Shown: positions 3,741-63,394 of the stretch, piece after piece | Layout: every line of letters begins with the position of its first letter | Position numbering within the stretch: the stretch's first letter is position 1 | Origin: a candidate division WOR-3 bacterium | GTDB lineage: Bacteria; Hydrothermota; UBA3073 | DNA length: 64,000 nt | Direction of reading: 5' to 3' | Assembly: GCA_023129165.1 (NCBI GenBank) | Contig: JAGMCL010000039.1 | Coordinates: forward strand, 1,839-65,838 | The notes under the pieces: generated by a model | Seen by the model: the letters and a program-made list of their open reading frames with translations, nothing else | The model's database searches: none | Told to the model about the DNA's origin: nothing | Position numbers and translations under genes: made by a program

Positions 3741-3897
3741 TACAATGAGATTGCTTCGTCCGTCAAGAAGAGCTACGGACTCGCAATGACAGAGACTGTA
3801 ATGAGATTGTTCGTCCGTCAAGAAGAGCTACGGACTCGCAATGACACTTTTATTATCGTCATTGCGAGCCGCAGGCGAAGCAATCGCATTATTAAGG
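3741..3897. repeat. Intergenic repeat cluster: a tandem about 50 bp unit x2 ending in GGACTCGCAATGACA, an 11 bp-stem hairpin, and one copy of the dispersed GTCATTGCGAG...GAAGCAATCGCATTATTAAG element.
   Basis: 3741-3791 and 3799-3846 are near-identical. ctcgcaatgac (3835-3845) and gtcattgcgag (3858-3868) are inverted. gaagcaatcgcattattaagg (3877-3897) recurs at 10509-10528 and 46862-46874. Confidence 0.8.
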
Positions 3898-4094: not shown

Positions 4095-7000
4095 TTAATT
4101 TGTGGAGTATACAGGAAGGAAGACCTTAAAAACAGAACCTTTACCCAACTCACTTTCGACATTTATCCAGCCATCGTGTTGTTTAATAATACCAAAAACA
4201 GTAGATAAACCAAGTCCGGTACCCTTTCCAACATCTTTAGTACTAAAAAAAGGCTCGAAGATGTGTGAAATGATTTTCCTATCCATACCGATTCCTGTGT
4301 CTGTAACAGATAGGCAGACAAATTTTCCGGGTCGTGCTTCGCGTATGGTTTGACAATCCTTTTTCTTCAGGGTCACATTTTCTGTTTTAATAGTGAGCTT
4401 TCCTCCTTTAGGCATGGCATCTTTGGCATTGACTCCCAGATTCATGATTATCTGTTCAATATTTCCTTTATTGCCCTGTACCATCCAGATGTCGGATTGC
4501 AGCTCAATGTTAACTTTGATATTTTTACCAAAGAGCTGGCTGAGCATTTTTAATAAATCATCAACTATTTCATTTATGTTAAGGGAGGTGAACTCTATTG
4601 GCTCTCTACGACTGAAAAGGAGTAACTGGTTTGTGAGACCTGTTCCACGTTTAGAAGCATCATTTATGTGGCATAGAAACTTATGTAGAAGGTCCGTGTT
4701 TTTTATATTCTCAATCGACAGGTCAGTATACCCTTTGATAGTCGTCAACAGGTTGTTGAAATCATGAGCAATTCCTCCGGCTAATCTCCCTATAGATTCC
4801 ATCTTTTGTGCCTGTAAAAACTGGTCACGTATCTTCTCTTTTTCTTCTTCTGCCTTTTTACGATCCTTCATCTCTTTCCTCAATTGCTCATTGGTAATAC
4901 TTAATTCGGAAGTTCGCTCATCTACTCTTATCTCTAATTCTTCTTTGATCTTTTCTACCTTCTCTTTTTCCTCTTTTAATTGTCTGGTTCGGACATCAAC
5001 TTCCTTCTCTAATATTCTTTGTCGTCTTTCCAAATTTACGATACGCATTTTGACAGAAGCATAAATGGTACCTATCCCTACTATTATACAAAATAGATAA
5101 AACCACCAGGTTCTCCAGAAAGGAGGGATTATTCTAAAACTATAGGTAGATAGATTTTTATTCCATAGACCATCACCGTTGCAAGCTTTTACCTTGAATG
5201 TATATTTCCTGGATGGCAAATTTGAGTAGGTAATATAGGTTTCTTTAGTTATTGGTGACCAATTTTTATCAACTCCTTCAAGTTTATATTGATATCTTAC
5301 TTTTTCAGGGTTGGTTAGACTTATGCCTATGAAATCAAACGTTATATGGTTTTGGTTATAGAGTAATTTCAAGCCAATTGGTAAACCTGATTTTTTACTG
5401 ATACTATCGGTGTAGGTAGACCAATCGACATCTTCGAAAAAGAGACGCAAATTTGTAATATGTGTGAGTGGTTCCACTGTATTTGGCTTATCTTCCCTGG
5501 GGTTGTATTTCACAACTCCTTTTATTGTGCCAAACCATATGTTGCCTTTACTATCTTTACAAACTGCGTTTTGATTACATTCTATACCGATAAAACCCTC
5601 TTCTTTACCATAATGTTTGAATGTTTTTTTTCCTGTTTTATTATACTCTGAAATATCGAGTTTGTCTATTCCCCTGTTTGTACCTATCCATAGGTTCCCT
5701 GTGTCATCAAAAACCATTGAAAGTACTGCATCGTCACATAAGCCAACCTCGGATGTGAAGGTCTCAAATGAGCCAGGCTCTCCATTATTAGAATAAATAT
5801 GTTTTAAAACCCCACCACCATAGGTACCAATCCATATATTTCCTTCCTTATCTTTCCTAAGACACATAATAGCATTACTACTTAGGCCCTCTTTTGTGGT
5901 ATAATTAATAAACGCTTTGCCATCATATTTACTTATACCACCACCATCAGTTCCAAACCACATATTTCCGTCTTTATCTTCCAAAATAGACATTACAATA
6001 TTATTACCTAAGCCATCTTTTGTAGTAAAGCTTATAAAGGATTTTCCATTATATCTACATACACCACCACCATCAGTTCCAAACCACATATTTCCTTTTT
6101 GGTCCTCAGTAATAGAATGTATGCTATTACTACTCAATCCCTCTTTTGTAGTATAATTAGTAAAAGTATCTCCATCATATTTAATTAAACCACCGCTATT
6201 ACAACCAAACCACATATTTCCTTTTTGGTCCTCAAAAACAGACATAATAAAATCGTCGCTTAAGCCATCTTTTATTGTATAGTTAATAAAATTTCTTCCG
6301 TTATATTTACTTACTCCCCCTCCGTATGTTCCAAACCACATATTTCCTTTTTGGTCCTCAAAAATAGAATAGATAGTATTATTATTTAGACCATCTTTAG
6401 TAGTATAATAGATAAAAGTATCTCCACCATATTTACATACACCACCATCAGTTCCTATCCATATATTTCCTTCTCTATCCTCTAAAAAATACCATATTGA
6501 ATTATTACTTAACCCATCTTTTGTGGTGTAGTTAATAAAGGTTTTTCCATCGTATTTATATACACCTTTGCCATTAGTCCCAAACCACATATTTCCTTCC
6601 TGATCCTCTAAAATAGAGTAAATTGTATTTTCAGCTAACCCTTTTTCTAAAGTGAAATCTGTAAAGGTTATTCTGTCATATTTACTAATACCAACATCAG
6701 ACCCAAACCATAGGTTTCCTTTACTATCTTCAAGGATATAAAAGATGTTATTACTATTAAGACCATCTTTAGTTGTAAAATTAGTAAAGGTTGCTCCATC
6801 ATATTTTGTTACACCACCGCCGCCAGTCCCAAACCATAGGTTACCATCTTTATCCTCTAAGATCGACCAGATTGTATTATTACTTAAGTTCTCGTTTGTG
6901 GTTATTGTAGTGAATTTCGCTCCGTCATAATTATTTACACCTTCACCAGTCCCAAACCATAGGTTACCATCTTTATCCTCTAAGATCGACCAGATTGTAT

Positions 7001-7358
7001 TATCGTTTAGTCCCTCTTCAGCTGTAAAATTTGTAAAGGTTTCCCCATCATATTTACTTAAACCAACATCTGTTCCGAACCACGTATTCCCTTTTCTATC
7101 TTCTACAATAGACAAGATTATATTATTACTTAAGCCATTTTTTGTAGTTAGGTTAGTAAAATTTACCCCATCATATCTGCTAACTCCTCCTCCATTTGTG
7201 CCAAACCACATATAACCTTTGCTGTCCTGATAAATAGCCATTACCTGAGATTGTGCCAGGCCGTCTTCTACCGAGTAGATCTTGAAATTATAATGTTGAC
7301 CGGAAATAGTCTGGGGTAAGTTTAATAATGTTATGAAAGTGTAAAATAAAATACGCAT
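4095..7358 (-). CDS. Large sensor histidine kinase: periplasmic two-component-regulator propeller repeats plus Y_Y_Y domain, TM, HisKA and HATPase_c. No receiver domain.
   Basis: About 20 tandem beta-propeller repeats (G(N/Y)(L/M)WFGT...GGGV(S/C)(K/R)YDG). A Y_Y_Y-like segment (PSRKYTFKVKACNGDGLWN) is followed by a TM helix (WWFYLFCIIVGIG) and a coiled coil. H-box IAHDFNNLLTTI, then a GHKL ATPase region (GxGxG near the C-terminus). The repetitive DNA generates many spurious overlapping ORFs. Confidence 0.8.
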   Translation of the reverse strand: MRILFYTFITLLNLPQTISGQHYNFKIYSVEDGLAQSQVMAIYQDSKGYMWFGTNGGGVSRYDGVNFTNLTTKNGLSNNIILSIVEDRKGNTWFGTDVGLSKYDGETFTNFTAEEGLNDNTIWSILEDKDGNLWFGTGEGVNNYDGAKFTTITTNENLSNNTIWSILEDKDGNLWFGTGGGGVTKYDGATFTNFTTKDGLNSNNIFYILEDSKGNLWFGSDVGISKYDRITFTDFTLEKGLAENTIYSILEDQEGNMWFGTNGKGVYKYDGKTFINYTTKDGLSNNSIWYFLEDREGNIWIGTDGGVCKYGGDTFIYYTTKDGLNNNTIYSIFEDQKGNMWFGTYGGGVSKYNGRNFINYTIKDGLSDDFIMSVFEDQKGNMWFGCNSGGLIKYDGDTFTNYTTKEGLSSNSIHSITEDQKGNMWFGTDGGGVCRYNGKSFISFTTKDGLGNNIVMSILEDKDGNMWFGTDGGGISKYDGKAFINYTTKEGLSSNAIMCLRKDKEGNIWIGTYGGGVLKHIYSNNGEPGSFETFTSEVGLCDDAVLSMVFDDTGNLWIGTNRGIDKLDISEYNKTGKKTFKHYGKEEGFIGIECNQNAVCKDSKGNIWFGTIKGVVKYNPREDKPNTVEPLTHITNLRLFFEDVDWSTYTDSISKKSGLPIGLKLLYNQNHITFDFIGISLTNPEKVRYQYKLEGVDKNWSPITKETYITYSNLPSRKYTFKVKACNGDGLWNKNLSTYSFRIIPPFWRTWWFYLFCIIVGIGTIYASVKMRIVNLERRQRILEKEVDVRTRQLKEEKEKVEKIKEELEIRVDERTSELSITNEQLRKEMKDRKKAEEEKEKIRDQFLQAQKMESIGRLAGGIAHDFNNLLTTIKGYTDLSIENIKNTDLLHKFLCHINDASKRGTGLTNQLLLFSRREPIEFTSLNINEIVDDLLKMLSQLFGKNIKVNIELQSDIWMVQGNKGNIEQIIMNLGVNAKDAMPKGGKLTIKTENVTLKKKDCQTIREARPGKFVCLSVTDTGIGMDRKIISHIFEPFFSTKDVGKGTGLGLSTVFGIIKQHDGWINVESELGKGSVFKVFLPVYSTN

Positions 7359-28024: not shown

Positions 28025-28285
28025 AAAACCTCCATAAACCAAAGTAGTTATTGTCAAAAATCTAACCACAGATTAACCCTGTTAAATATCTTAACGATTA
28101 ATGTCAGAAGGCTACAGTAAACGTTTCTATTAAACAGGGTGAACCCTGTCAAATATTTACAAAATTAAGTACAAGTAATCATCTCTGGTACTTTATCTAA
28201 CAGGGGAGCCACAGGGAATTAATTTTATTTGTGAGATTCAATGAACTTAGCTCCCATTAGTAAAGCTCACTGGTTCTATTGCCTG

Positions 28286-28885: not shown

Positions 28886-29194
28886 ATCAACCTCCCTTTT
28901 AGAACAGTAAAATGCTTTTTTCGAGTTTCGTTATTAGTGCTATGTTAGCAAAGCTAATTTCGCTTTTTTATGAGTATGGTAGGCGCAGGCTTCAGCCTGC
29001 GAATTACAACGCAACCTGAAGGTTGCGGCTACCTCTAAAATGTAACATACCTTACTTTACACAGTACCAGCTTCCACACCGTTTACCCTGTTAAATAATA
29101 TAACAATAAATGTCAGGGTTCCACAGTAACCGCTTCTATTTAGCGGGGTGACCCGAGTTTCGATATACTAAGTTGTATAAAGGTTTAATTTTGT

Positions 29195-30260
29195 TTAGGT
29201 ATTCTTTGACAGCAGGTACTCTTTTATAAAGTCATCTATTTCTCCACCCATAACTCTCTCAACATTGCCAGTCTTATGACCAGTGCGATGGTCCTTTATA
29301 AGCTTATATGGATGAAGCACATAAGAACGTATCTCTCTACCCCAGCCAATTTCTTTCTTGTCCTTCTCGAGCTTCTTTAATTTCTTCCTTTCCTCTTCTC
29401 TCTTTATCTCATAGAGTTTTGCTCTTAGAACCTTTAATGCGTTTACTCTGTTTTGATACTGTGAGCGTTCACTCTGGCAGGTTACAACTATTTTGGTTGG
29501 AATATGAGTAATTCTAACTGCAGTGCTTAATTTATTCACATTCTGTCCTCCTGGTCCAGATGAACGGAATGTATCCATCCTTAATTCAGTCTCTTTAATT
29601 TCTATTTCTGCCGTATCTTCGATGACAGGATATACAAAACAGGATGCGAATGATGTGTGTCTTCTCGCCCCAGAATTAAAGGGAGATATACGCACTAATC
29701 TATGAATGCCTGTTTCAGATTTTAGATATCCGTATGCATATTCTCCCTTTATTTCGATTGTGACATCCTTGATGCCTGCAACGTCTCCTGGTTCAAGGTC
29801 GAGAATATTGGAGGAGAATTTATGCCTTTCTACCCATCTTAGATACATACGAAGAAGCATCTCTGCCCAATCACATGCCTCTGTTCCTCCTGCACCAGGA
29901 TGTATGCTGAGTATGGCATCGTTTTTATCATCTTTATTGTTCAGGGTAAATTGTATCTCAAAATCATCTATTTTTTTTTCGAGTGTCTCTATTTCCTCTG
30001 TAACCTCTTCTGTGTCTTCTATCATGGAAGTTAATTCTTTAGTATCTATTATGTCTTTTTTCAGATTCTCAAAAGTGGACAGAATATTTTTGATATTAGA
30101 TAATTCTTTTGTAATTTCCTGAGCTCTAATATTATCGTTCCATAAATCAGGTTTTACAGCCTTTTTTTCGAGTTCAGAGAGTCTTTTCCTTAATTTATCT
30201 AGGTCAAAGAAACCTCCCGAGCTTATCTACTCGCTCAATCAATGTATCTATATTACTCAT
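29195..30260 (-). CDS. prfB: Peptide chain release factor 2, requiring the conserved programmed +1 ribosomal frameshift at CTT TGA C (complement of 30203-30209).
   Basis: Frame 0 from the ATG (complement of 30258-30260): MSNIDTLIERVDKLGRFL, then in-frame TGA, with an SD-like GGGAGG 3 nt upstream of CTT. The +1 frame continues DLDKLRKRLSELEKK... into the 276 aa ORF. That ORF carries the SPF motif (ISPFNSGARRHTSF) and GGQ (SGPGGQNVNK). AGGAGG RBS before the ATG. Confidence 0.85.
30203..30209 (-). promoter_or_regulatory. prfB: prfB programmed +1 frameshift site CUU UGA C, with an upstream SD-like GGGAGG.
   Basis: Read directly: ...CTC GGG AGG TTT CTT TGA CCT AGA TAA. The +1 frame continues into the RF2 body. 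Confidence 0.85.
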
Positions 30261-30353
30261 AATTCCTCCTATAAATTAAAAAAGTATTGTCAAAAAACTT
30301 TTGCCTATTTTCTTCTAATTCGTTAGCTAACGAATAACCTACAATTTTACAAG

Positions 30354-30652
30354 CAGTTATCTACTTTTTGCTTGCCTCCCCCTGATTCTTGTAGGGGTCG
30401 GATTCATCCGATCCGTTTCTTTTGTGGGTTCGATAAATCGAACCACTACATTTTTGCTTTCATATTCTTTCATATTATTTTGACACTATTTTAAACAGTT
30501 ATCTACTTTTTGCTTGCCTCCCTCTGATTCTTGTAGGGGTCGGATTCCCGTCTACCGTCGGGCGGGTATCCGACCCGTTTCTTTTGTGGGTTCGATAAAT
30601 CGAACCACTACATTTTTGCTTTCATATTCTTTCATATTATTTTTCGCAGTAT
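30354..30652 (-). repeat. Two tandem copies (142 and 157 bp) of a structured repeat upstream of prfB. A third copy lies at 52785-52934 upstream of ppiD.
   Basis: Unit cagttatcta...ttgcttgcctccccctgattcttgtaggggtcggattcccgtctaccgtcgggcgggtatccgacccgtttcttttgtgggttcgataaatcgaaccactacatttttgctttcatattctttcatattatttt. It contains hairpins GGGTCGGAT...ATCCGACCC and GGGTTCGAT-aaa-ATCGAACCC. Copy 1 has a deletion in hairpin 1. Confidence 0.85.
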
Positions 30653-30815
30653 CATTAAAAGAAATTGTACAACATTTGACACTACAGGTTAATGGTAATG
30701 AAAGACGTACTTTGTTGAATTTATGAACTTAATGGAAATTTATTATACCACAATTTTTTACCATTGTCAAGCCTTTTTAAAAAAGTCACATAAAGAAATA
30801 TATCTTATTTTTTCC

Positions 30816-45047: not shown

Positions 45048-45773
45048 CTACACCTCAAAAACATTTATAACCTCTTCCCCAAGCATATCAATGATTTTTA
45101 CTGCAACTTGGGTTTTAGATTCTGGGATTTCAATTTCATATTTTCCTTTTACTAAGTCGTTTTTTCTTTCTGGAACATCGGAGTAAACGATATGGAAGGT
45201 TTTGCCATCGTAATTTTTATCAATTAAAACTGTATCAATCATAGATCTATAATCGGGGATTTTTACCTTGAAGAGTTTATTGTCAATGTTAAGACGTTCA
45301 ATTATTGTGGGAGAGATAAAGTTCTGAATCTCCACTAATGTCTTTGTCTTATCAATCCTTTCAACTTTTATTTTTGCTTCTGCGGGCTTGTGGATTAAGA
45401 AATTACCATATTTTTTATTTGTCTTTAACTCAATTACTTTAATCTTATTTACAGGATGTTTCTTGTTCCACTCATCAATCCAGGGGTCAACCGCTAATTC
45501 TTTGCCAAGACAGACAATAGTTATATCCCTATCTTCAGTTGGTCTTTTCTTTAATTCATCTTGAAGAAGTTGTAAGTCAAGAAGTGTTAGGGGATGATTA
45601 AAATCAATAATTTTTACGAGATTTTTCCCTAAATATCCATCAAAAAATCTATCGGTTCGTGTCCTTTGAATTCCAATATGCTGGACTGCAAGTTCAATTG
45701 CCTCGGTTTTTAAAAGTTGCAAATCATAGTCGTTAACCTTATAGATACCGAAAGAATAATACTTCTTACACAT
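45048..45773 (-). CDS. Hypothetical protein in the defence operon; unassigned.
   Basis: 241 aa. Overlaps the upstream DUF1016 gene by 8 nt. I recognise no motif. Confidence 0.3.
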   Translation of the reverse strand: MCKKYYSFGIYKVNDYDLQLLKTEAIELAVQHIGIQRTRTDRFFDGYLGKNLVKIIDFNHPLTLLDLQLLQDELKKRPTEDRDITIVCLGKELAVDPWIDEWNKKHPVNKIKVIELKTNKKYGNFLIHKPAEAKIKVERIDKTKTLVEIQNFISPTIIERLNIDNKLFKVKIPDYRSMIDTVLIDKNYDGKTFHIVYSDVPERKNDLVKGKYEIEIPESKTQVAVKIIDMLGEEVINVFEV

Positions 45774-46800
45774 CTTTTGCCTCCAGTTTTAATTGTGCAG
45801 TTTGTATGGCTTTATGTAATTTTTCAGCAAATAATTCTTTTGGTGGCAATTTTGTCAGGTATTCCGCTACTTTTATTCTATCCTTTGGTAAAAATAGAAG
45901 TTCTATCTGCTCTTTACCTTTTTCAGCACAGAGTATAAGTCCAACAGGTGGATTCTCTCCTTCAAGCATTTCATATTTCTCTAAATATCTGAGATAAAGT
46001 TCCATCTGACCTTTGTAGTCTGCTTTAAATTTCCCAAGTTTTAAGTCTATCACTATGAAGCATCTTAATTTTCTGTGGTAAAATACCAAATCCATATAGT
46101 AATCCTCGTTATCAACAGTAATTCTTTTCTGTCTTGCCACAAAATAGAAATCTTTTCCTAATTCAAGGATAAATTTCTCAAGGGCATTCAATATTGCTCT
46201 TTCTAAATCTCTTTCACTATAAGTATCGCTGAGTTCTAAAAAGTCCAATACATAAGGGTCTCTAAAAACTAATTCTGGTGTCATTTTGTCTTTTTCTTTT
46301 AGTTCTTTTAATTGCATTTTTATAGTCTTTTCTGGAAGTTTTGACAATGCGGTTCTTTCATAAAGCATACTATTCATTCTTTCCTGAAGTGTGCGTGTGC
46401 TCCAGTGTTCTTTCAAGCATAAGGTAGCGTAAAATTCTCGTTTTAATTTATCTTTTGTTGGCAAAAGAGTTCTAATATGTGTCCAACTCAGCCCTTCTAA
46501 TTCTCCACGCAGTGCGTGGAGAATTGGGTAGCTTTCATATAACTGAATCATATACCACAAATTTTGTGTTGAATATCCTTTACCGTATTTTTGTGTTAAT
46601 AGTGAACTAACCGAGTTCACTATCTTTTTCCCATACTCAGCCCTATATGACTTTATTATCTCTTCTTTGACTGTCTTACCTATGTTCCAGTAGAGCAACA
46701 CCATCTCCTGATTGATAGTAGTGGCAACTTTTCTTCTTGCCTGTTCTATCAAGCCAGAAATTTTGTCAAACAGACCTTTACCTTTCTCAATTTTATTCAT
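45766..46800 (-). CDS. DUF1016/YhcG-family PD-(D/E)xK nuclease-fold protein.
   Basis: Matches the YhcG pattern: N-terminal helical domain (LSWTHIRTLL) and C-terminal PDDEXK core (GKDFYFVARQKRITVDNEDYYMDLVFYHRKLRCFIVIDLKLGKFKADYKGQMELYLRYL). Confidence 0.7.
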   Translation of the reverse strand: MNKIEKGKGLFDKISGLIEQARRKVATTINQEMVLLYWNIGKTVKEEIIKSYRAEYGKKIVNSVSSLLTQKYGKGYSTQNLWYMIQLYESYPILHALRGELEGLSWTHIRTLLPTKDKLKREFYATLCLKEHWSTRTLQERMNSMLYERTALSKLPEKTIKMQLKELKEKDKMTPELVFRDPYVLDFLELSDTYSERDLERAILNALEKFILELGKDFYFVARQKRITVDNEDYYMDLVFYHRKLRCFIVIDLKLGKFKADYKGQMELYLRYLEKYEMLEGENPPVGLILCAEKGKEQIELLFLPKDRIKVAEYLTKLPPKELFAEKLHKAIQTAQLKLEAKDV

Positions 46801-47957
46801 TAACTAATTCCTTTTTTTTGATTTGTTGAAGTTCTTCCACTGTCATTGCGAGGCATAGCCAAAGCAATCGCATTTTTTATCTGCTCTTGTATTATTCCCT
46901 GCAATCTCTTGCTCGTTATCTGAATTGCTCCCTTGTTTATATCACACCCAATCCATCGCCTGCCAAGTGCTTGGGCAACCGCAAGAGTTGTGCCTGAACC
47001 GATGAAGCAGTCAAGGACTATTCCATTTTCATTGGAAGCGGCTTTTATAATACGCTTAAAAATCATATCATGCTTTTGTGTTTGAAAACCCGTTTTACTA
47101 TCACCCCTAATCGCTGGTACTTCGATAAAATTATCTGCTTTTTCTTCATAAACTAAAAAGTACCTTATTTTACCGTCTTTATCTCTGATCCTTTCTGCTT
47201 TGCCCATTTTTTCATTCCATTGATGCATACTTGCTTTTCTTGGCTTATCTAACTTTTCGTAAACTTCATTGTAGATATGTGATCCTTTATGTTTTGCGTA
47301 CCATAGAATATTCTCTGTATTTTGATGAAATTTCTTCGATTTCGCCTTTAGTCCCACAGCTGTATAATGAACAATCACTTCATTTAAAAAGTTATCTTCA
47401 CCGAATATTTCATCTATGAGCAGCTTTACATAGTGAGCCATACGCCAATCCAGGTGCACATAAATAGAGCCTGTATCTGCTAACAACTCCTTTAAAAGTA
47501 TCAATCTCTCATACATAAACTGCAAATAAGTATCATTATTCCAAATATCAAAATACATTGTCTGTTGTAAGATAGATGCTTCATCTTCTTCTATCCGCCC
47601 TAAATTTTTTAGTCCTCTGAGTTCAACTTTTCTTACATAATCCGCCCCGCTTTTAAATGGTGGGTCTATATAAATCAAATCAATCTTTCCTCTGAATCCT
47701 AATTCAAGAAGTGTTGCTAAAATATCCTTATTATCTCCGTGAAATAGTAAATTATGCCAATTATCTTTGAGATTCTCATATGAGATTGCTTCGCCTTTGG
47801 CTCGTAATGACAAATCGCCTGGCGGGTCAAAGACTTCTACAAGTTGGGCAGGAAATCCTTTAACATAATCGAGCGGCTTTTTACCTACCCAGTTAAGCAT
47901 TGGTCGTCCTTTAGCAGAAGAGATTTTGATTTTATTTTCTGCCATTATAGCCCCCAT
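46800..47957 (-). CDS. Beta-class N6-adenine/N4-cytosine DNA methyltransferase (Type III Mod-like; short).
   Basis: N-terminal LNWVGKK. Motif IV DPPF (IDLIYIDPPFKSGADY) precedes motif I near the C-terminus (LDCFIGSGTTLAVAQALGRRWIGCDIN), which is beta-class order. The last about 25 codons overlap a dispersed repeat copy. Confidence 0.75.
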   Translation of the reverse strand: MGAIMAENKIKISSAKGRPMLNWVGKKPLDYVKGFPAQLVEVFDPPGDLSLRAKGEAISYENLKDNWHNLLFHGDNKDILATLLELGFRGKIDLIYIDPPFKSGADYVRKVELRGLKNLGRIEEDEASILQQTMYFDIWNNDTYLQFMYERLILLKELLADTGSIYVHLDWRMAHYVKLLIDEIFGEDNFLNEVIVHYTAVGLKAKSKKFHQNTENILWYAKHKGSHIYNEVYEKLDKPRKASMHQWNEKMGKAERIRDKDGKIRYFLVYEEKADNFIEVPAIRGDSKTGFQTQKHDMIFKRIIKAASNENGIVLDCFIGSGTTLAVAQALGRRWIGCDINKGAIQITSKRLQGIIQEQIKNAIALAMPRNDSGRTSTNQKKGIS

Positions 47958-50538
47958 ATTTATATATTGCTTCTCTAACTTTATTCAAACCTTCAAAAGT
48001 TAGTTGCTCCCCCTTCGTCTCTACAATTTCATACTTCAATCTATCAGGGTTCAGTCCTTCAATTCTTCTCATTTCCTTTTCCTTTGCTTCATCTTTAAAT
48101 CGTTCAGCTTTTATCTCAATGATTAGCATTTTGCCATTTTTCCTTCTTATTAAAAAATCAGGTGAGTAATTATGATACCCGCCATCTTTACCTTTATATT
48201 CAAAGAGAAAATCGGTCTTTTTAGGGTCGTCAATTGCTCCTGTAAAATAAACATCCTCAACATCTGCTGGGTTTTCATTTAACATTGCTAACAGTTGCTG
48301 GAAGAAATCTACTTCAGGATTAGAATCAAACTTATAGGGATTATAGTGAAAACCAAAATCTCGTTTATTTAATTCTTTAAATTCCTCATACCTTTTAAGC
48401 AAATGTTCTTTATCTTTGTGATAAATTATTTCTGTCACATAGTTCTCATCTTTCTTATTGAAACCAGCAGTTTTCACAAGTGCCAATGCAGACTCAACTT
48501 CTTCCTCTATTATTTTATAATTTTTTAGTTGTCTCTCAATTTGTTTTTTAATTTCATGGGTATCATTGCTGGACATTTCTCCATCAGGATATAAATTCTT
48601 TAGTTTTTCATGTACTGGCATAAGCGGTAATCTATACAGAGCTGAAAGCTCAACAGCAAAAGAATAGGCATCAACAAAATCTTCTTCTGTTATTAGTTTT
48701 TCATCTTTCTGTGCTATCAAAACACCTTTTCTATCAGGAATTTCTTTTAGGTCATAGAAAATCTTTTTGACCTCATCTATAGAAATATCAGGTTTTTGTA
48801 ATTCTATTTGAGTGATATCAATTTCTTTATCAACTGGGATAACTTTTTGAATCTTTTTTCTGAGTAAAACGGGTGGTATCTCCACTTTTCTTAAAATTAG
48901 TCTATCCTTTCTTATATCTTGTGGAGTTCTATTTAAATCTTCAAGAGTTTCACCATAGGTCTCTTTAAGTTGTGTGTCTAAAATTCCGACATTATCTTTT
49001 GAAAGGTAGATTTTTGCCTTGTGTATATTGCCAGTAGTTTGTCTGAGGCAGCGGGAAGCAGCTTGAAGGCAAAAGTTATTACTTGCTGTCAGTTTTCGTG
49101 CTAAGGCAGTAGAAAAAAGAGATAAGCAATTCCATCCCTCAGTCCCTTTATTAACAAGAAGAAAAATGCGGTAAAGTAGGTGTGGGTCATTTATTCGGTT
49201 ATCAAATAAATCCTTAACCTCTTGTTTTGACTCATTATGCACTTCTAAAACTATAGAAGGATCAAAGCCGAGCTCTATTAAGGTTTTTTCAACAACTGGC
49301 TTGGCATTTGTTAAATCCTCTATTTTTGGAAAATATATTGCCAGTTTAGAAGGACTACCATCATAGATCTTTACATCTTTATAACTCTTAAAGAAATCTG
49401 TAATAACATCTTTTAGAAAATCTCTATCCGTTACTTCTGAATAAGATACAATATTGCCCCGGACTTCTTTCAATATTCCATCTTTTATCCCTTGCGATAG
49501 ACCATACCAACAAACAACATCTTTAAGGATCTGTCTTTTATAATATGGAGTCCCAGTGGTGTTTACCACAACTAAAACATTTGTCTCTTCTGATAAATAA
49601 TTAACTGTTTGTCTCACTCTCTTCAGTTCTTTACCGAGTGCCAGTCCATAGGTATGGTGTGCTTCATCAGAAAAGATAGCAAGATTTGGAAGAGAGGCAA
49701 TTGTTTGCAATCTCTGATTGGCTATCACCTCCTTTACCTCATCTTCTCGGGATGGGTCAACAAATAAATCTTTGATTAAAGATTTGGTTATTGATTGTTT
49801 TTGTATTCTAATCTTTTCTGTATTAGTTACCACGATATTATAACTTGAACCTTTGATTATTGGAATGTCTTTTTCGCCATCGCGAGTATAGGTAAATTTT
49901 GTAGTGGTTATAAACTGTTTATAAAGCCTTTCAGGCAATATTTTCTCATAAGGAACATCCGATAGCTCTTTTAATGCTCCTAAGATGGTCTTGCCTGGCG
50001 CAAATACCAGGGCATTTTTGACAAAGTAATCCTCTGGATATTCAAGAGCCATTGCAAATTCTGTAGCGATAATAGCGCCAATTAAAATGGTCTTACCTGC
50101 TCCCATCGCCAATGCTAATATGTAGCTGGAGTAAGACAGGATTAGTGTTTCTCTGAGAGCTTGTAACCTATATTTTTTTACAAAGGCGTCGTCGTCTCTT
50201 ATTTTTTTAAATATTGAATTTATTCCGCCACCAGAGATAGCAATTTTTTTCCAGTCTTCATCTGTTAGTTTAATACCCAGAGCATCTAAAAGGTCATTTG
50301 GAGGAAAGATTTTTTTGTATAAATCAAAAATATGTGGAGTTTTTTCAATGAGTCTTAAATACCAGTAAGTTTCAAGGGCATCAAATTGGGCTTTTCGTAA
50401 GAAACGAAGGTTTTGGGTTCCTGAATTATAGTTGAAATTGAGAATTTCACCAATAACAGAATACCCTGTATTATAACTGTTATTTCTCCATTCAGACACT
50501 CTTGTTCTTAGTGTATCATGTAAATACATAACAGGCAA
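47932..50538 (-). CDS. SF2 helicase with a C-terminal PD-(D/E)xK nuclease motif (Type III Res-like restriction subunit).
   Basis: Walker A (AMGAGKT), DEAH box (FSDEAHH), motif III (TGTP), motif VI (QAASRCLRQ). C-terminal YSPDFLIRRKNGKMLIIEIKA (D...E-I-K). Overlaps the methyltransferase start by 26 nt. Confidence 0.65.
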   Translation of the reverse strand: MPVMYLHDTLRTRVSEWRNNSYNTGYSVIGEILNFNYNSGTQNLRFLRKAQFDALETYWYLRLIEKTPHIFDLYKKIFPPNDLLDALGIKLTDEDWKKIAISGGGINSIFKKIRDDDAFVKKYRLQALRETLILSYSSYILALAMGAGKTILIGAIIATEFAMALEYPEDYFVKNALVFAPGKTILGALKELSDVPYEKILPERLYKQFITTTKFTYTRDGEKDIPIIKGSSYNIVVTNTEKIRIQKQSITKSLIKDLFVDPSREDEVKEVIANQRLQTIASLPNLAIFSDEAHHTYGLALGKELKRVRQTVNYLSEETNVLVVVNTTGTPYYKRQILKDVVCWYGLSQGIKDGILKEVRGNIVSYSEVTDRDFLKDVITDFFKSYKDVKIYDGSPSKLAIYFPKIEDLTNAKPVVEKTLIELGFDPSIVLEVHNESKQEVKDLFDNRINDPHLLYRIFLLVNKGTEGWNCLSLFSTALARKLTASNNFCLQAASRCLRQTTGNIHKAKIYLSKDNVGILDTQLKETYGETLEDLNRTPQDIRKDRLILRKVEIPPVLLRKKIQKVIPVDKEIDITQIELQKPDISIDEVKKIFYDLKEIPDRKGVLIAQKDEKLITEEDFVDAYSFAVELSALYRLPLMPVHEKLKNLYPDGEMSSNDTHEIKKQIERQLKNYKIIEEEVESALALVKTAGFNKKDENYVTEIIYHKDKEHLLKRYEEFKELNKRDFGFHYNPYKFDSNPEVDFFQQLLAMLNENPADVEDVYFTGAIDDPKKTDFLFEYKGKDGGYHNYSPDFLIRRKNGKMLIIEIKAERFKDEAKEKEMRRIEGLNPDRLKYEIVETKGEQLTFEGLNKVREAIYKYGGYNGRK

Positions 50539-50633: not shown

Positions 50634-50707
50634 TGCCCCGAGCAGGATTCGAACCTGCAACGCTCGGTTCCGAAGACCGACGCTCTTATCCATTGAGCTA
50701 CCGGGGC
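50634..50707 (-). tRNA. tRNA-Arg (anticodon TCG).
   Basis: Minus-strand sequence GCCCCGGTAGCTCAATGGATAAGAGCGTCGGTCTTCGGAACCGAGCGTTGCAGGTTCGAATCCTGCTCGGGGCA folds as a canonical cloverleaf. 7 bp acceptor stem (one G-U pair). D arm GCTC/GAGC. Anticodon stem TCGGT/ACCGA with loop CTTCGGA. T arm GCAGG-TTCGAAT-CCTGC. No encoded CCA. Confidence 0.8.
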
Positions 50708-50981: not shown

Positions 50982-52691
50982 CTAATATCTATAGTCTTCT
51001 ATCTTTGATAATTCTATCTGGGACTTGAGCCATTCATTAAATGCTTTATCTCTTCTTTCCTTCCATAACTCAACCTGAAACTCAGAAAATTTCTCCTGTA
51101 TTGTTTCTATCTCTGGTTCTTCTCTTTTTATACATTTAATTATAAAACAAGCGTCTTTTCCAATGACCGGGTTGCTTACGTTTCCTTCAGAGGTTACCCA
51201 AATTGCTCCATAAAATGTGGGATCTGTGGGCATATCAATTGGAGGATTTACTATAGAGAATTTGTCAACCTTTTTATATTTAATGTCTTTCAATGCCCTA
51301 TTAAATGTAGTTCCATATTCTACATTATTTTTAACTTCTATTAGTATAGTTTTTATAATCGCTTCCCTTTTCTCCTTTAAATAACTTTCCTTAACTTCCT
51401 CTTTTATCTCACTGAAGGGTGGTATTGTTTCAGGTATTGTGCCTCTATTTGTCCATACATAGATACCATCTTTTCTGCGGATAGGCTGGGATATTTTGCC
51501 TATCTTTGATGTGAGAAGAAGATTTGATATATCAAAACCATCTAATTCTTCAGATGTGGTTTCTTGAAGTTCGAGGTTCATAGCTTGTGCTCCATTTTCG
51601 AATCCATTCTCCTGTGCAAGTTCTATGAATGAGAAGGCATTATCCATAGCTAAACCAATTGTTTCATAAGAGGGAACAAGTCTCAGGTAGATTTGAGAAA
51701 TTTCAACGGAATCTCTTGTCCTACTATAGCATTTAAAGATATAAACTCCATCTTCTGTTTTTATAGGACCATATATGTCATCCCTGGACATTGAGAATAT
51801 TGCCTTTTCAAGCTTGTTGCTTAATTTACCCCTTTTAACAAAACCGATATAGCCAAATTCTCTTTTGGTTTTTGAATCGTCAGAAAAACGGAGAACAAGT
51901 GTGTCAAACGATTCACCTGAATGTAGTTGTGATATAATATCCGTTGCTTCTTCTATTAGCATGTTCTCATCTTCAAGTGATGCCGATAGATTGAATTTAA
52001 CATACTGTACGAGTATAGCTTTAGGTCTTTTAAAGAGCTCTTTTTCTCTCTCATAGTATTCCTGCAAATCGCTTTCATCAAAATCAACAATTATGTCCTC
52101 TGTGTGTATCTCTCCATACTCTACAGTAAACAGTGTATTTCTCTTAAAATATTCATTAATTGATGCTGTAGGTTGTACTGTTGAGAGCACCTGCATATAG
52201 AGTCGTTGTCTGGGTATTATATCTCTTATCCAGGATTCGTACTGTCTAAAGTATCTTATGTTTTGAGGATTTTGAAATAATTCTGCATACTTCAGGTAGT
52301 CAAACTCCCCACTGGTATAGAAGGTTGTGTCCTGCAGTATCTGTGGGGGAGGATTGGTCTTTATTGCATCTACAACCTCCTTATCACTGGGGATTAGTCC
52401 AACCTTTTGGTAATAGTCTCTTAAGATTGTTGCCTCAACAAGTGTATTGAATGCCGAATCTGATGCCTCATCCTCAGTATAGCCCATCTCCATGTAATTT
52501 CTTACGAGATTGCTATAGGCAATAGAAGAGATTTCTTTACCATTTACCTCTGCTATAACCCCTTTCTGTAGTTGTGTCATTGATCGAGAGCTGGCAAATC
52601 GCATACCCCATTGAAAGAAGATGAATGCAACAAATATTGCAACGGCAAACCACAAGAAGACGGTAATCTGTTTTCTCAATCTTTGTATCAT
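50982..52691 (-). CDS. Periplasmic chaperone / peptidyl-prolyl cis-trans isomerase, PpiD/SurA-like.
   Basis: N-terminal TM anchor, a SurA_N-like chaperone region, and a parvulin (PpiC-type) domain (IGFVKRGKLSNKLEKAIFSM...GPIKTEDGVYIFKCYSRT). Confidence 0.7.
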   Translation of the reverse strand: MIQRLRKQITVFLWFAVAIFVAFIFFQWGMRFASSRSMTQLQKGVIAEVNGKEISSIAYSNLVRNYMEMGYTEDEASDSAFNTLVEATILRDYYQKVGLIPSDKEVVDAIKTNPPPQILQDTTFYTSGEFDYLKYAELFQNPQNIRYFRQYESWIRDIIPRQRLYMQVLSTVQPTASINEYFKRNTLFTVEYGEIHTEDIIVDFDESDLQEYYEREKELFKRPKAILVQYVKFNLSASLEDENMLIEEATDIISQLHSGESFDTLVLRFSDDSKTKREFGYIGFVKRGKLSNKLEKAIFSMSRDDIYGPIKTEDGVYIFKCYSRTRDSVEISQIYLRLVPSYETIGLAMDNAFSFIELAQENGFENGAQAMNLELQETTSEELDGFDISNLLLTSKIGKISQPIRRKDGIYVWTNRGTIPETIPPFSEIKEEVKESYLKEKREAIIKTILIEVKNNVEYGTTFNRALKDIKYKKVDKFSIVNPPIDMPTDPTFYGAIWVTSEGNVSNPVIGKDACFIIKCIKREEPEIETIQEKFSEFQVELWKERRDKAFNEWLKSQIELSKIEDYRY

Positions 52692-52784
52692 ATATCCTCC
52701 TTATAGAAAAAAAGGTATTGTCAAAAAACTTTTGCCTATTTTCTTCTAATTCGTTAGCTAACGAATAACCTACAATTTTAAAAG

Positions 52785-52934
52785 CAGTTATCTAATTATT
52801 GCTTGCCTCCCCCTGATTCTTGTAGGGGTCGGATTCCCGTCTGCCATCGGGCGGGTATCCGACCCGTTTCTTTTGCGGGTTCGATAAATCGAACCCCTAC
52901 ATTTTTGCTTTCATATTCTTTCATGTTATTTTTC
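52785..52934 (-). repeat. Third copy of the structured repeat, upstream of ppiD. It is followed by the same about 75 bp leader seen at prfB.
   Basis: About 95% identical to the unit at 30496-30652. The shared flank tattgtcaaaaaacttttgcctattttcttctaattcgttagctaacgaataacctacaatttta(c/a)aag is also present (52716-52784 vs 30285-30353). Confidence 0.85.
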
Positions 52935-53175
52935 ACATTATCTTAATTACGGTGTTGTCAAAAACTAACCACAGACCTGCCTATGGTCATACAAGCGAAT
53001 TTATTAACAGTTCAAGCCAGTTTCGAAATCCTTCTTGTTTAACGTTGTCGATACTTGCCTGCCTGCGGTAGGCAGGTATCGGTGCTCGATATTTTGATGC
53101 TCGAAGCTCGTCTCCACTTGTCGCTTATTATATCATAAAATGCAAAAAAAGTCAAGGAAAAAGAGGGTGGGTGTA

Positions 53176-55289: not shown

Positions 55290-55407
55290 AAACAACTCCT
55301 GAGAAAAGTTATAGTATTGTTAAAAATCTAACCACATACCTGCCCTACACCCCTCTTCGTCCGTCAAACGACGGACTCCTACCTTTTATCGTCCCGCCAG
55401 ATGTGGG

Positions 55408-55883
55408 GCTCCTACATTCCCTTTCCGGTAGGAGGGGTTTCCTAACCCCGATTAAATTATCGCGACGGGGACGTTGCTCCTACCCTGTATCGCGACTAGG
55501 AAGTCGCTCCTACATTCCCTTTCCGGTAGGAGGGGTTTCCTAACCCCGATTAAATTATCGCGACGGGGACGTTGCTCCTACCCTGTATCGCGACTAGGAA
55601 GTCGCTCCTACATTCTCCTTTCCGGTAGGAGGGGTTTCCTAACCCCGATTAAATTATCGCGACGGGGACGTTGCTCCTACCCTGTATCGCGACTAGGAAG
55701 TCGCTCCTACATTCTCTTTCCGGTAGGAGGGGTTTCCTAACCCCGATTAAATTATCGCGACGGGGACGTTGCTCCTACCCTGTATCGCGACTAGGAAGTC
55801 GCTCCTACATTCTCCTTTCCGGTAGGAGGGGTTTCCTAACCCCGATTAAATTATCGCGACGGGGACGTTGCTCCTACCCTGTA
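55408..55883. repeat. Tandem array of a 98-99 bp unit, about 4.8 near-identical copies, each with three hairpins.
   Basis: Unit gctcctacattccctttccggtaggaggggtttcctaaccccgattaaattatcgcgacggggacgttgctcctaccctgtatcgcgactaggaagtc repeats at 55408, 55506, 55604, 55703 and 55801. It is truncated in the fifth copy. Copies differ by 1-nt indels at cattccc / cattctcc / cattctc. Confidence 0.9.
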
Positions 55884-56035
55884 ATTAGTCTGATGTCTTA
55901 CTAAATACGCTCTATGGAGTGCATTTACCATGTCGATGCATATTATGAAATTGTATTTTAACGTGCGTAGATTATACCATATTTAAGGGTTTTTGTCAAG
56001 CAAAAAAGCAGAGAGTTACTTACGTTTGTTTTTTC

Positions 56036-63159: not shown

Positions 63160-63394
63160 TTTTAATAACTTCGCCACCAAGTCCGTTAGCTAACGGAAAG
63201 GCACTAAGTTTTTTCTATTCAAATAACGAATAAAATATAACAACAAGCAATTTCTTTGTGCCTTCGTGGCAATATAGAAACCACAAAGGCACTGAGTTTA
63301 TAAGTTATTCTTTTGTTTTTTTTCAAATAATAATTTAAATCTTTTCTTTGTGTCTTTGTGCCTTCGTGGCAATATAGAGGCTACCAATCACTAA

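Follow-up and report, generated by a model that had tools for sequence, protein, structure and literature searches.

Repetitive extragenic palindromes (REPs) are usually regarded as lineage-specific, and arrangements of them reportedly go under the names of BIMEs (bacterial interspersed mosaic elements) or REPINs (REP doublets forming hairpins) (Nunvar 2010; Bertels and Rainey 2011). For the GTAG-tagged REP superfamily, head-to-head (HH) heterodimers, complex loops and tandemly reiterated clusters have been described (Di Nocera et al. 2013, PMC3733652). Insertion sequences (ISs) of the IS6 family, on the other side, share an end consensus of GG tips, cTGTt and caaa together with 8-bp repeats (Varani et al. 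2021, PMC7986276). Features of both kinds meet in a repeat cassette found upstream of prfB and of a ppiD-like gene in 64,000 nt of contig JAGMCL010000039.1 from a candidate division WOR-3 bacterium; this whole stretch is called the window here. A first-pass annotation had described the cassette as a structured repeat plus an almost identical leader, and had proposed a mobile promoter/leader cassette, a cis-regulatory RNA or a small-RNA gene. According to the present analysis, repeat and leader are in all likelihood one non-autonomous transposable element, a MITE (miniature inverted-repeat transposable element) of about 226 nt with smaller mobile palindromes nested in it. This would explain why two unrelated housekeeping genes carry a near-identical 'leader', and it calls for caution in inferring their co-regulation.

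Architecture of the cassette at prfB and the ppiD-like gene

The identity of prfB follows from its PCRF and RF-1 domains and a classical GGGAGG-TTT-CTT-TGA-C frameshift site, that of the ppiD-like gene from SurA_N and Rotamase domains; the PpiD-like protein is annotated as candidate division WOR-3, with relatives 56-66% identical. Both genes are read from the minus strand, where all cassette features lie as well. The same cassette stands before prfB (30284-30651) and before the ppiD-like gene (52715-52940) with about 92-95% identity. In a repeat search, 30483-30653 paired with 52772-52942 (91%, 171 nt) and 30257-30405 with 52688-52836 (92%, 149 nt), a 76-nt core being found three times at 95-99% identity, while BLASTN aligned the distal prfB copy with the ppiD locus at 94.7% over 150 nt. 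The near-identical upstream sequence noted at first pass is thus borne out. The features are as follows.

30284-30651, minus strand: whole prfB cassette, 368 nt, bounded by TACTGCGAAAAATAAT (left end, degenerate) and TTTGACAATAC (right end), with two tandem REP-bearing units
30489-30651, minus strand: distal tandem unit of about 162 nt: left arm and REP-1, followed by the long-loop REP-2 and the beginning of the right arm
30586-30611, minus strand: distal REP-1 at prfB, GTAG tag plus hairpin GGTTCGATTTATCGAACC
30533-30576, minus strand: distal REP-2 at prfB, inverted, ending in CTAC, with a 20-nt extended loop
30424-30449, minus strand: proximal REP-1 at prfB, GTAG plus hairpin
30391-30414, minus strand: proximal REP-2 at prfB, short-loop form GGATCGGATGAATCCGACCCCTAC
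30319-30334, no strand assigned: 16-bp palindrome TTCGTTAGCTAACGAA at prfB, within a 19-nt block
30284-30297, minus strand: right terminal inverted repeat TTTTTTGACAATAC at prfB, the 'leader motif' of the first-pass annotation
30271-30283, minus strand: 13-nt spacer from the element end to the Shine-Dalgarno sequence (SD) of prfB, containing TTTTAAT
30258-30270, minus strand: prfB SD AGGAGG (30265-30270) and ATG (30258-30260)
30661-30685, minus strand: GTAGTGTCAAATGTTGTACAATTTC, a left-end-like motif adjoining a degenerate right-end-like motif, possibly the leftover of another copy
52715-52940, minus strand: ppiD-like cassette, 226 nt, one unit, no matching target duplication
52874-52900, minus strand: REP-1 at ppiD (GTAGGGGTTCGATTTATCGAACCC)
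52822-52865, minus strand: REP-2 at ppiD, long loop, ending in CTAC
52750-52765, no strand assigned: palindrome TTCGTTAGCTAACGAA at ppiD
52715-52728, minus strand: right terminal inverted repeat at ppiD, 13 nt before the SD (52696-52701), with the ATG at 52689-52691
52951-52964, minus strand: right end (TTTTTGACAACAC) of a different family member upstream, the ppiD cassette starting with its left end some 10 nt further on

Read in the sense of the genes, the cassette begins with a GGTAGTGTCAAA-like left end and an arm containing AATATGAAAGAATATGAAAG, continues with the head-to-head REP heterodimer (GTAG-GGTTCGAT..ATCGAACC, then GGGTCGGAT..ATCCGACCC-CTAC), and closes with the right arm, a 19-nt palindromic mini-insert and the right end TTTGACAATAC. 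The perfect 16-bp palindrome, the two hairpins (in two tandem copies at prfB and one at ppiD) and the motif before the SD had all been described correctly, and palindrome, hairpins and TTTTTTGACAATAC before AGGAGG are far above shuffled expectation: hairpin GGTTCGATTTATCGAACC occurs three times against 0.06 expected, and GGGTCGGAT...ATCCGACCC twice against 0. At prfB, the distal 162 nt of the cassette are a tandem duplicate, this REP-bearing segment having been duplicated after insertion. In the distal prfB and the ppiD REP-2 the loop is extended by 20 nt, and the proximal prfB REP-2 is of the short-loop type (GGAT-GA-ATCC) commonly seen in other genomes; what had been taken for a 20-nt deletion in the proximal copy is therefore really a short-loop second hairpin.

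A doubly compensated variant of the 16-bp palindrome, TCCGTTAGCTAACGGA, was found at 63182-63197, about 25 nt before the start of a peptide deformylase gene, and in an element of the related locus L120 (3438-3453; loci used for comparison are given by L numbers). Among the loci examined, the TTCGTTAGCTAACGAA/TCCGTTAGCTAACGGA family was found only in WOR-3 sequence.

Transposon ends, insertion sites and the nested REP dimer

Aligning the window copies with copies on other WOR-3 contigs defines the ends of the element. The left end reads GGTAGTGTCAAA(T/A)AG... and the right end ...TTTGACAATAC, the reverse complement of which is (G/A)GTATTGTCAAA, so that the family has the terminal inverted repeats of a MITE; in canonical members a second block, AACCACAG/CTGTGGTT, is common to both ends. 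Six of the seven complete copies are flanked at the expected positions by direct repeats of 9, 8, 9, 8, 7 and 7 nt, namely TTCTTAATT (L120), CATTATAAT (L121), GTCAATAA (L100), GAAAAAAA (L099), AAGTTCG (L007) and TTTTAAT at the prfB copy of the window. The last is imperfect, the TTTTAAT of the spacer echoing a left-flank TTTTAAT at 30654-30660. Together, these flanks show that the family inserts with target duplications of 7-9 bp. Judged by terminal inverted repeats and target duplications, the 'leader motif' TTTTTTGACAATAC is the right end of the element and the AATATGAAAGAATATGAAAG stretch its left arm.

Direct evidence of insertion is provided by the prfB-exbB junction. In L119 this junction is empty and reads gaaCTTCTTAATTtaacAGGAGG, with the uninterrupted target CTTCTTAATTtaacAGGAGG; in L120 the same target holds a 455-bp element with TTCTTAATT on either side. 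At the level of sequence, this pair of empty and filled orthologous sites proves insertion. Likewise, the orthologous leaders are empty of the cassette in L116 (ppiD) and in L119 and L120 (prfB). Further copies were found upstream of lepB in the WOR-3 metagenome-assembled genome (MAG) CSMAG_2245, with 94-100% identity in blocks, upstream of accC in a relative (a variant) and upstream of a secreted-protein gene in L115 from a JGI metagenome, the last without the hairpins and the 19-nt palindrome block. L115 was the only extra locus obtained by scanning metagenomes with a right-arm pattern, and three scans of viral sequence gave no match. Copies measure 216-455 nt, and the sole open frame, of 27-42 codons, does not stay intact from copy to copy. 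The recent spread suggested at first pass is accordingly upheld by ends, duplications, an empty and a filled site, and copies before lepB, accC and the secreted-protein gene.

Nested in this element, the two 'strong hairpins' form a head-to-head heterodimer of REP palindromes with GTAG tags, in agreement with the published description of HH heterodimers (PMC3733652). In the window, the tags read GTAG(T/G)GGTTCGAT.. and ..ATCCGACCCCTAC, and three dimers of this type occur in the 64 kb. The exact 18-mer GGTTCGATTTATCGAACC was present in more than 112 stretches of GTDB genomes, about 17 being expected by chance according to calculation, with hosts from Omnitrophota, Atribacterota, Auribacterota, WOR-3, Desulfobacterota, Zixibacteria, Ignavibacteria, Planctomycetia and others; one Omnitrophota MAG alone carries it at more than 20 loci. 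Hence, one exact GTAG-REP hairpin spans many phyla. Among the matches listed, GTAGG directly precedes the 18-mer in 94 of 115 occurrences, and a second hairpin ending in CCCCTAC follows it in 69 of 115, at a median distance of 34 nt. This partner has the form GGG-stem-GAT(A/G)AATC-stem-CCCCTAC. Covariation was assessed on 32 distinct 24-mers picked without regard to the variable stem positions: 97.3% of the cells were paired, double changes were found in 58 cells versus 16 in shuffles, and the covariation score of 0.545 (0.147 in shuffles) was reached by none of 500 shuffles. Short tagged palindromes whose hairpin is kept by compensatory changes are what membership of the GTAG-REPs calls for. 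The 18-mer is, moreover, extragenic, since just 20 of 122 listed occurrences (16%) lie in long open frames, which make up 83% of bases.

A second type of GTAG-tagged head-to-head dimer lies at 28980-29031, between prfB and exbB (GTAGG-CGCAGGCTTCAGCCTGCG, 8 nt, CGCAACCTGAAGGTTGCG-GCTAC). At L100 6700-6890, a three-unit REP cluster stands between 26-nt direct repeats of the MITE left arm (TTGATACTGTGAAAAATAATATTAAA), an arrangement which suggests that REP clusters may expand along with flanking DNA. As to the arms, the right-arm string GGAGGCAAGCAA (window 30367-30383) is identical to the stretch from SD to start (GGAGGCAAGCAATG) in a divergent small gene at L115 3345-3380. This gene, beside the L115 copy, begins MNKIARFVIWICSKFTRDEIEQIIQG; it was considered as a lead because its GGAGGCAAGCA start is common with the right arm, and was dropped, its N-terminus having no homolog in the window.

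In terms of mechanism, the MITE would be mobilised in trans by a DDE-type transposase, as the likeness of its ends to the IS6/IS26 consensus suggests, and the nested dimer would belong to a GTAG-REP system of its own, one that spans phyla and is of the sort that RAYT (REP-associated tyrosine) transposases mobilise. The ends (GG tip, TGT, CAAA) and repeats of about 8 bp resemble IS6/IS26, but the spacing differs, so an affinity to that family is put forward as a lead only. Several observations weigh against the MITE reading. In about 0.9 Mb examined, neither a full-length parent IS with the same ends nor an IS6-type transposase (tblastn, with an IS26 transposase as query) was found, and the window holds no RAYT. 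RAYT-like genes are present in L118 and L115 (NF047646, E values of 4e-22 and 4e-18, 78.7 and 65.8 bits), their scores lying just under the curated cut-off of 80 bits and their flanking repeats differing from the cassette REPs. Furthermore, the left ends are degenerate in both window copies, and a target duplication was sought at the ppiD copy and none was recognisable; this copy may have been placed or remodelled by recombination. Transcription of the cassette by read-through is something we infer, and the perfect TTGACA exactly 17 nt before AGGAGG may point to an expression-related role of the end.

The RAYT-like Y1 transposase genes themselves (L118 5977-6705 and L115 130-1210) are bracketed by GGGG(A/T)CAGGCTAC ... 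GTAGCCTG(T/A)CCCC, inverted half-sites with their GTAG tags toward the gene. In L115, the 5' flank of the gene consists of a tandem duplication of 61 nt, with a promoter-like TTGACA in it.

For the two window copies, a relationship by recombination or gene conversion, rather than by two independent transpositions, deserves mention as a tentative alternative, and it is compatible with a MITE origin for the family as a whole. The missing target duplication at ppiD speaks for it, as does a weak similarity of the two loci that runs on through the T-rich spacer to the ATG. Outside the generic SD and ATG positions, however, this spacer similarity is low (20/29), the prfB copy does have its imperfect flanking repeat of 7-10 nt, and synteny upstream of ppiD is intact.

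Placement beside Shine-Dalgarno sequences and the regulatory readings

The first-pass annotation had proposed to look for further copies and their position relative to genes. A search for right ends, blind to strand and context, yielded at least 14 of them in about 190 kb of WOR-3 sequence. For 13 of the 14, an SD and start codon follow on the same strand at a distance of 12-15 nt, in most cases exactly 13; the right ends before both genes of a divergent pair in L121 are among them. After the fourteenth, the next cassette follows. In the window, TTTTTTGACAATAC at 30284-30297 and 52715-52728 ends exactly 13 nt before AGGAGG, as had been observed for both loci, and two more right ends behave alike.

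28047-28060, minus strand: right end belonging to another member of the family, with the exbD SD 13 nt further on
55313-55326, minus strand: right-end variant TTTTTAACAATAC, preceded by a 98-nt tandem array of GTAG-tagged hairpins and followed after 13 nt by the SD of an M16 peptidase gene

The duplicated 8-9 bp finish 4 nt before AGGAGG, which puts the conserved TTGACA 17 nt from the SD. These data show insertion into the few AT-rich bases just upstream of the SD, with the right end facing the gene. For the fixed distance of 13 nt, the most likely cause is that the transposition machinery chooses its target site in this way, and not a regulatory role: leaders of 50-100 nt contain numerous other AT-rich positions, so that selection alone explains the orientation better than the distance. 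It had been reasoned that a consistent orientation toward genes would argue against a selfish MITE; this discriminator fails here, as the copies are transposon-like and consistently gene-oriented at once. One specific form of target choice, in which the family homes to ribosome-binding sites by using the SD or a coupled feature as an asymmetric landmark with fixed offset and single orientation, is considered possible, if doubtful. If true, homing would make gene leaders a safe harbour for the MITE and each insertion would set a perfect TTGACA one promoter-spacer (17 nt) from the SD; it would also represent an undescribed bacterial mode of transposon target selection and a ready-made 5'UTR (untranslated region) insertion system.

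Upstream of this M16 peptidase gene, a unit of 98-99 nt made of GTAG-tagged hairpins (GGTAGGAGCAACGTCCCCGTCGCGATAATTTAATCGGGGTTAGGAAACCCCTCCTACC...) is repeated about six times in tandem over 55322-55911 (minus strand), between a consensus promoter near 56000 and the right-end motif that precedes the SD by 13 nt. Units related to it are found at L100 7150-7290.

Both window genes retain a promoter of their own upstream of the insertions.

30742-30770, minus strand: native prfB promoter TTGACA-17-TATAAT, 12/12 with TG, kept in L119, L120 and L121, upstream of the cassette
53127-53155, minus strand: native ppiD promoter TTGACT-17-TATAAT, kept in L116, L117 and L118, upstream of all inserted repeats

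The ppiD promoter matches at 11 of 12 positions, both have an extended -10 TG, and 430-475 nt of inserted repeats lie downstream of them. In L116, the closest relative for ppiD, the same promoter and conserved flanks are followed by about 50 nt to the SD without a cassette; the prfB orthologs in L119 and L120 have the same TTGACA-17-TATAAT promoter and leaders of 55-100 nt, again without it. Because ortholog leaders keep the promoter and have no cassette, the latter is, by this comparison, a lineage-specific insertion into existing leaders and not an ancestral regulatory element. The cassette would be read through from these conserved promoters as part of a 5'UTR of 430-475 nt. Terminator-like sites, that is, hairpins followed by a T-tract, occur only antisense (6 vs 0 at prfB and 3 vs 0 in each of L120 and L100, with 0.1-0.5 expected); behind the hairpins of the sense strand lie A-rich tracts. 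The opposite orientation would consequently be polar and counter-selected, giving a selective reason for the orientation bias.

With these signals at hand, the readings that give the cassette a function can be weighed. The one that survives best, though still improbable, regards it as a portable expression module: mobile, with a right end that would provide the downstream gene with an outward-facing TTGACA as the -35 box of a hybrid promoter, or with a translational enhancer or processing site at fixed distance upstream of the SD. Every copy faces a gene, and a perfect TTGACAAT, identical to the -35 region of the lineage's native promoters, is kept at every right end, its distance to the SD being fixed at 17 (16-19) nt. 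Yet at the 17-nt position stands AGGAGG and not a -10 box, -10-like words lying just 7-13 nt from TTGACA; a scan for sigma-70-like promoters predicted none at, in or near the right end, and a transcript begun there would be without an SD. Moreover, consensus native promoters are kept upstream at prfB, ppiD and the M16 peptidase gene, and copies also sit between cistrons of the prfB-exbB-exbD operon. From the earlier proposal of a mobile promoter/leader cassette, mobility therefore stands, while the promoter falls away, none being predicted in the element and the native ones lying upstream.

Far less plausible, and largely refuted, is a shared cis-regulatory RNA (an attenuator, riboswitch-like or protein-binding leader) co-regulating prfB and ppiD, as the first-pass annotation had considered. 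The 5'UTR location, the sense orientation and a strong predicted structure (folding z of -4.1) would suit such an RNA, but the antisense strand folds better (z of -6.0), and folding of both strands is expected of DNA palindromes rather than of a strand-specific RNA. The cassette is missing from the orthologous prfB and ppiD leaders of relatives and present before unrelated genes elsewhere, sense-strand terminators are absent, and transposon ends with target duplications frame it. The suggested Rfam scan lent no support either: at gathering thresholds, the whole window gave only a tRNA elsewhere, and at relaxed thresholds nothing at either locus had an E of 1 or below except one chance-level group II intron fragment. 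Ortholog conservation, strand-specific structure and a known family, by which a cis-regulatory leader RNA would be recognised, were thus not found. A small-RNA gene, sense or antisense, is hardly credible: terminator-like sites do exist on the antisense (+) strand, but no promoter-like site is placed to drive a transcript on either strand, the sense strand has no promoter and terminator pair, and the hairpins are generic REP units known from many phyla in varied contexts.

Three smaller candidates were rejected. The frame of a leader peptide (ATGAAAGAATATG..., 27-42 codons) lacks an SD and shifts from one copy to the next; GGTTCGA, if read as tRNA-like, does not stand in a T-arm context, and the tRNA model has no match there; and for TTGACAATAC as a standard promoter -35 box, the SD occupies the position 17 nt downstream and promoter scans are negative.

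Other repeats and genes of the window were recorded along the way. A 73-nt long-hairpin repeat (CACCCTGTTTAATAG...TATTTAACAGGG, 77% identity) lies at 28073-28145 in the exbB-exbD spacer, directly followed by CTGTGGTTAGATTTTTGACAATA, and at 29082-29154 in the prfB-exbB spacer; a relative of it is found upstream of a 2-hydroxyacid dehydrogenase gene in L121. Small palindromic repeats of other types, widespread among uncultivated anaerobes, occur at 53040-53075, 3755-3893 and 46842-46877 as well as in L117, L120 and L121; among them, CCTGCCTACCGCAGGCAGG is also inserted in the REP-2 loop of L007, and there are GTCATTGCGAG...GCAATC units as well. At about 45048-50538, genes for a ResIII helicase, an N6 DNA methylase and a DUF1016 protein stand between ppiD with a tRNA gene (50634-50707) and RadC; this block is missing in L116 and L117 and looks like a restriction-modification island beside a tRNA gene, L118 having its RAYT-like gene at the same tRNA. 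Finally, an open reading frame of 1087 amino acids at 4095-7358 (minus strand), with internal periodic repeats of 126 and 249 nt (families D1, D2 and D6), probably encodes a repeat-domain protein.

Comparison with known mobile palindromes

Fixed distance and orientation relative to a short landmark are known from Tn7 at attTn7, from IS200/IS605 at tetranucleotides and from IS1397 and IS621 inserting into REPs. Unlike in these cases, the landmark here would be the ribosome-binding site, which is available at thousands of genes; this remains an analogy only.

With respect to the ends, the closest likeness is to the IS6/IS26 family and its rare MITEs, GGTAGTGTCAAA having the GG tip, TGT and CAAA where the consensus reads GG..cTGTt..caaa, and target repeats measuring about 8 bp (PMC7986276). 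In contrast, the spacing of TGT and CAAA is 2 nt shorter in the WOR-3 family, and its duplications look like 8-9 bp. With regard to the position of the copies, oriented insertion adjacent to an SD is, to our knowledge, not known for IS6 elements.

As a whole, the cassette resembles Correia/NEMIS of Neisseria, ERIC, RUP and MITEAba12, which are likewise non-coding, measure 100-450 bp and have terminal inverted repeats as well as target duplications. Like Correia/NEMIS and similar MITEs, it is gene-adjacent, would be co-transcribed into mRNA leaders, and has ends able to pair as a long RNA hairpin. It departs from Correia/NEMIS in a target duplication of 7-9 bp instead of TA, in strict orientation, in the fixed 13-nt distance to the SD and in its nested REP palindromes, and neither a promoter nor an integration host factor (IHF) site or RNase III processing has been demonstrated for it.

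The nested part agrees in most respects with GTAG-tagged REPs (PMC3733652). Palindromes of 20-44 nt carry an unpaired GTAG tag, two inverted units with different stems and outward GTAG tags form a heterodimer, short and long 'complex' loops occur side by side in extragenic positions, and units are tandemly reiterated with flanking DNA and form mosaics with other conserved motifs. Unlike the known dimers, those of the window travel as passengers in a larger element with terminal inverted repeats and target duplications, and they lie in 5'UTRs and not downstream of genes. An identical 24-mer across phyla (Omnitrophota, Atribacterota, WOR-3, Desulfobacterota, Zixibacteria and others) also sets them apart.

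The cassette comes down to selfish DNA of known kinds: a MITE that carries a dimer of REPs together with a mini-palindrome, amplified in tandem at prfB. New are the family in an uncultivated phylum, its strict placement at ribosome-binding sites and the cross-phylum identity of the REP. In WOR-3, long 5'UTRs would accordingly be made of nested mobile palindromes behind conserved promoters, and the oriented, SD-adjacent insertion represents a testable anomaly, which could point either to a new target-selection mechanism or to a strong survival filter in compact genomes.

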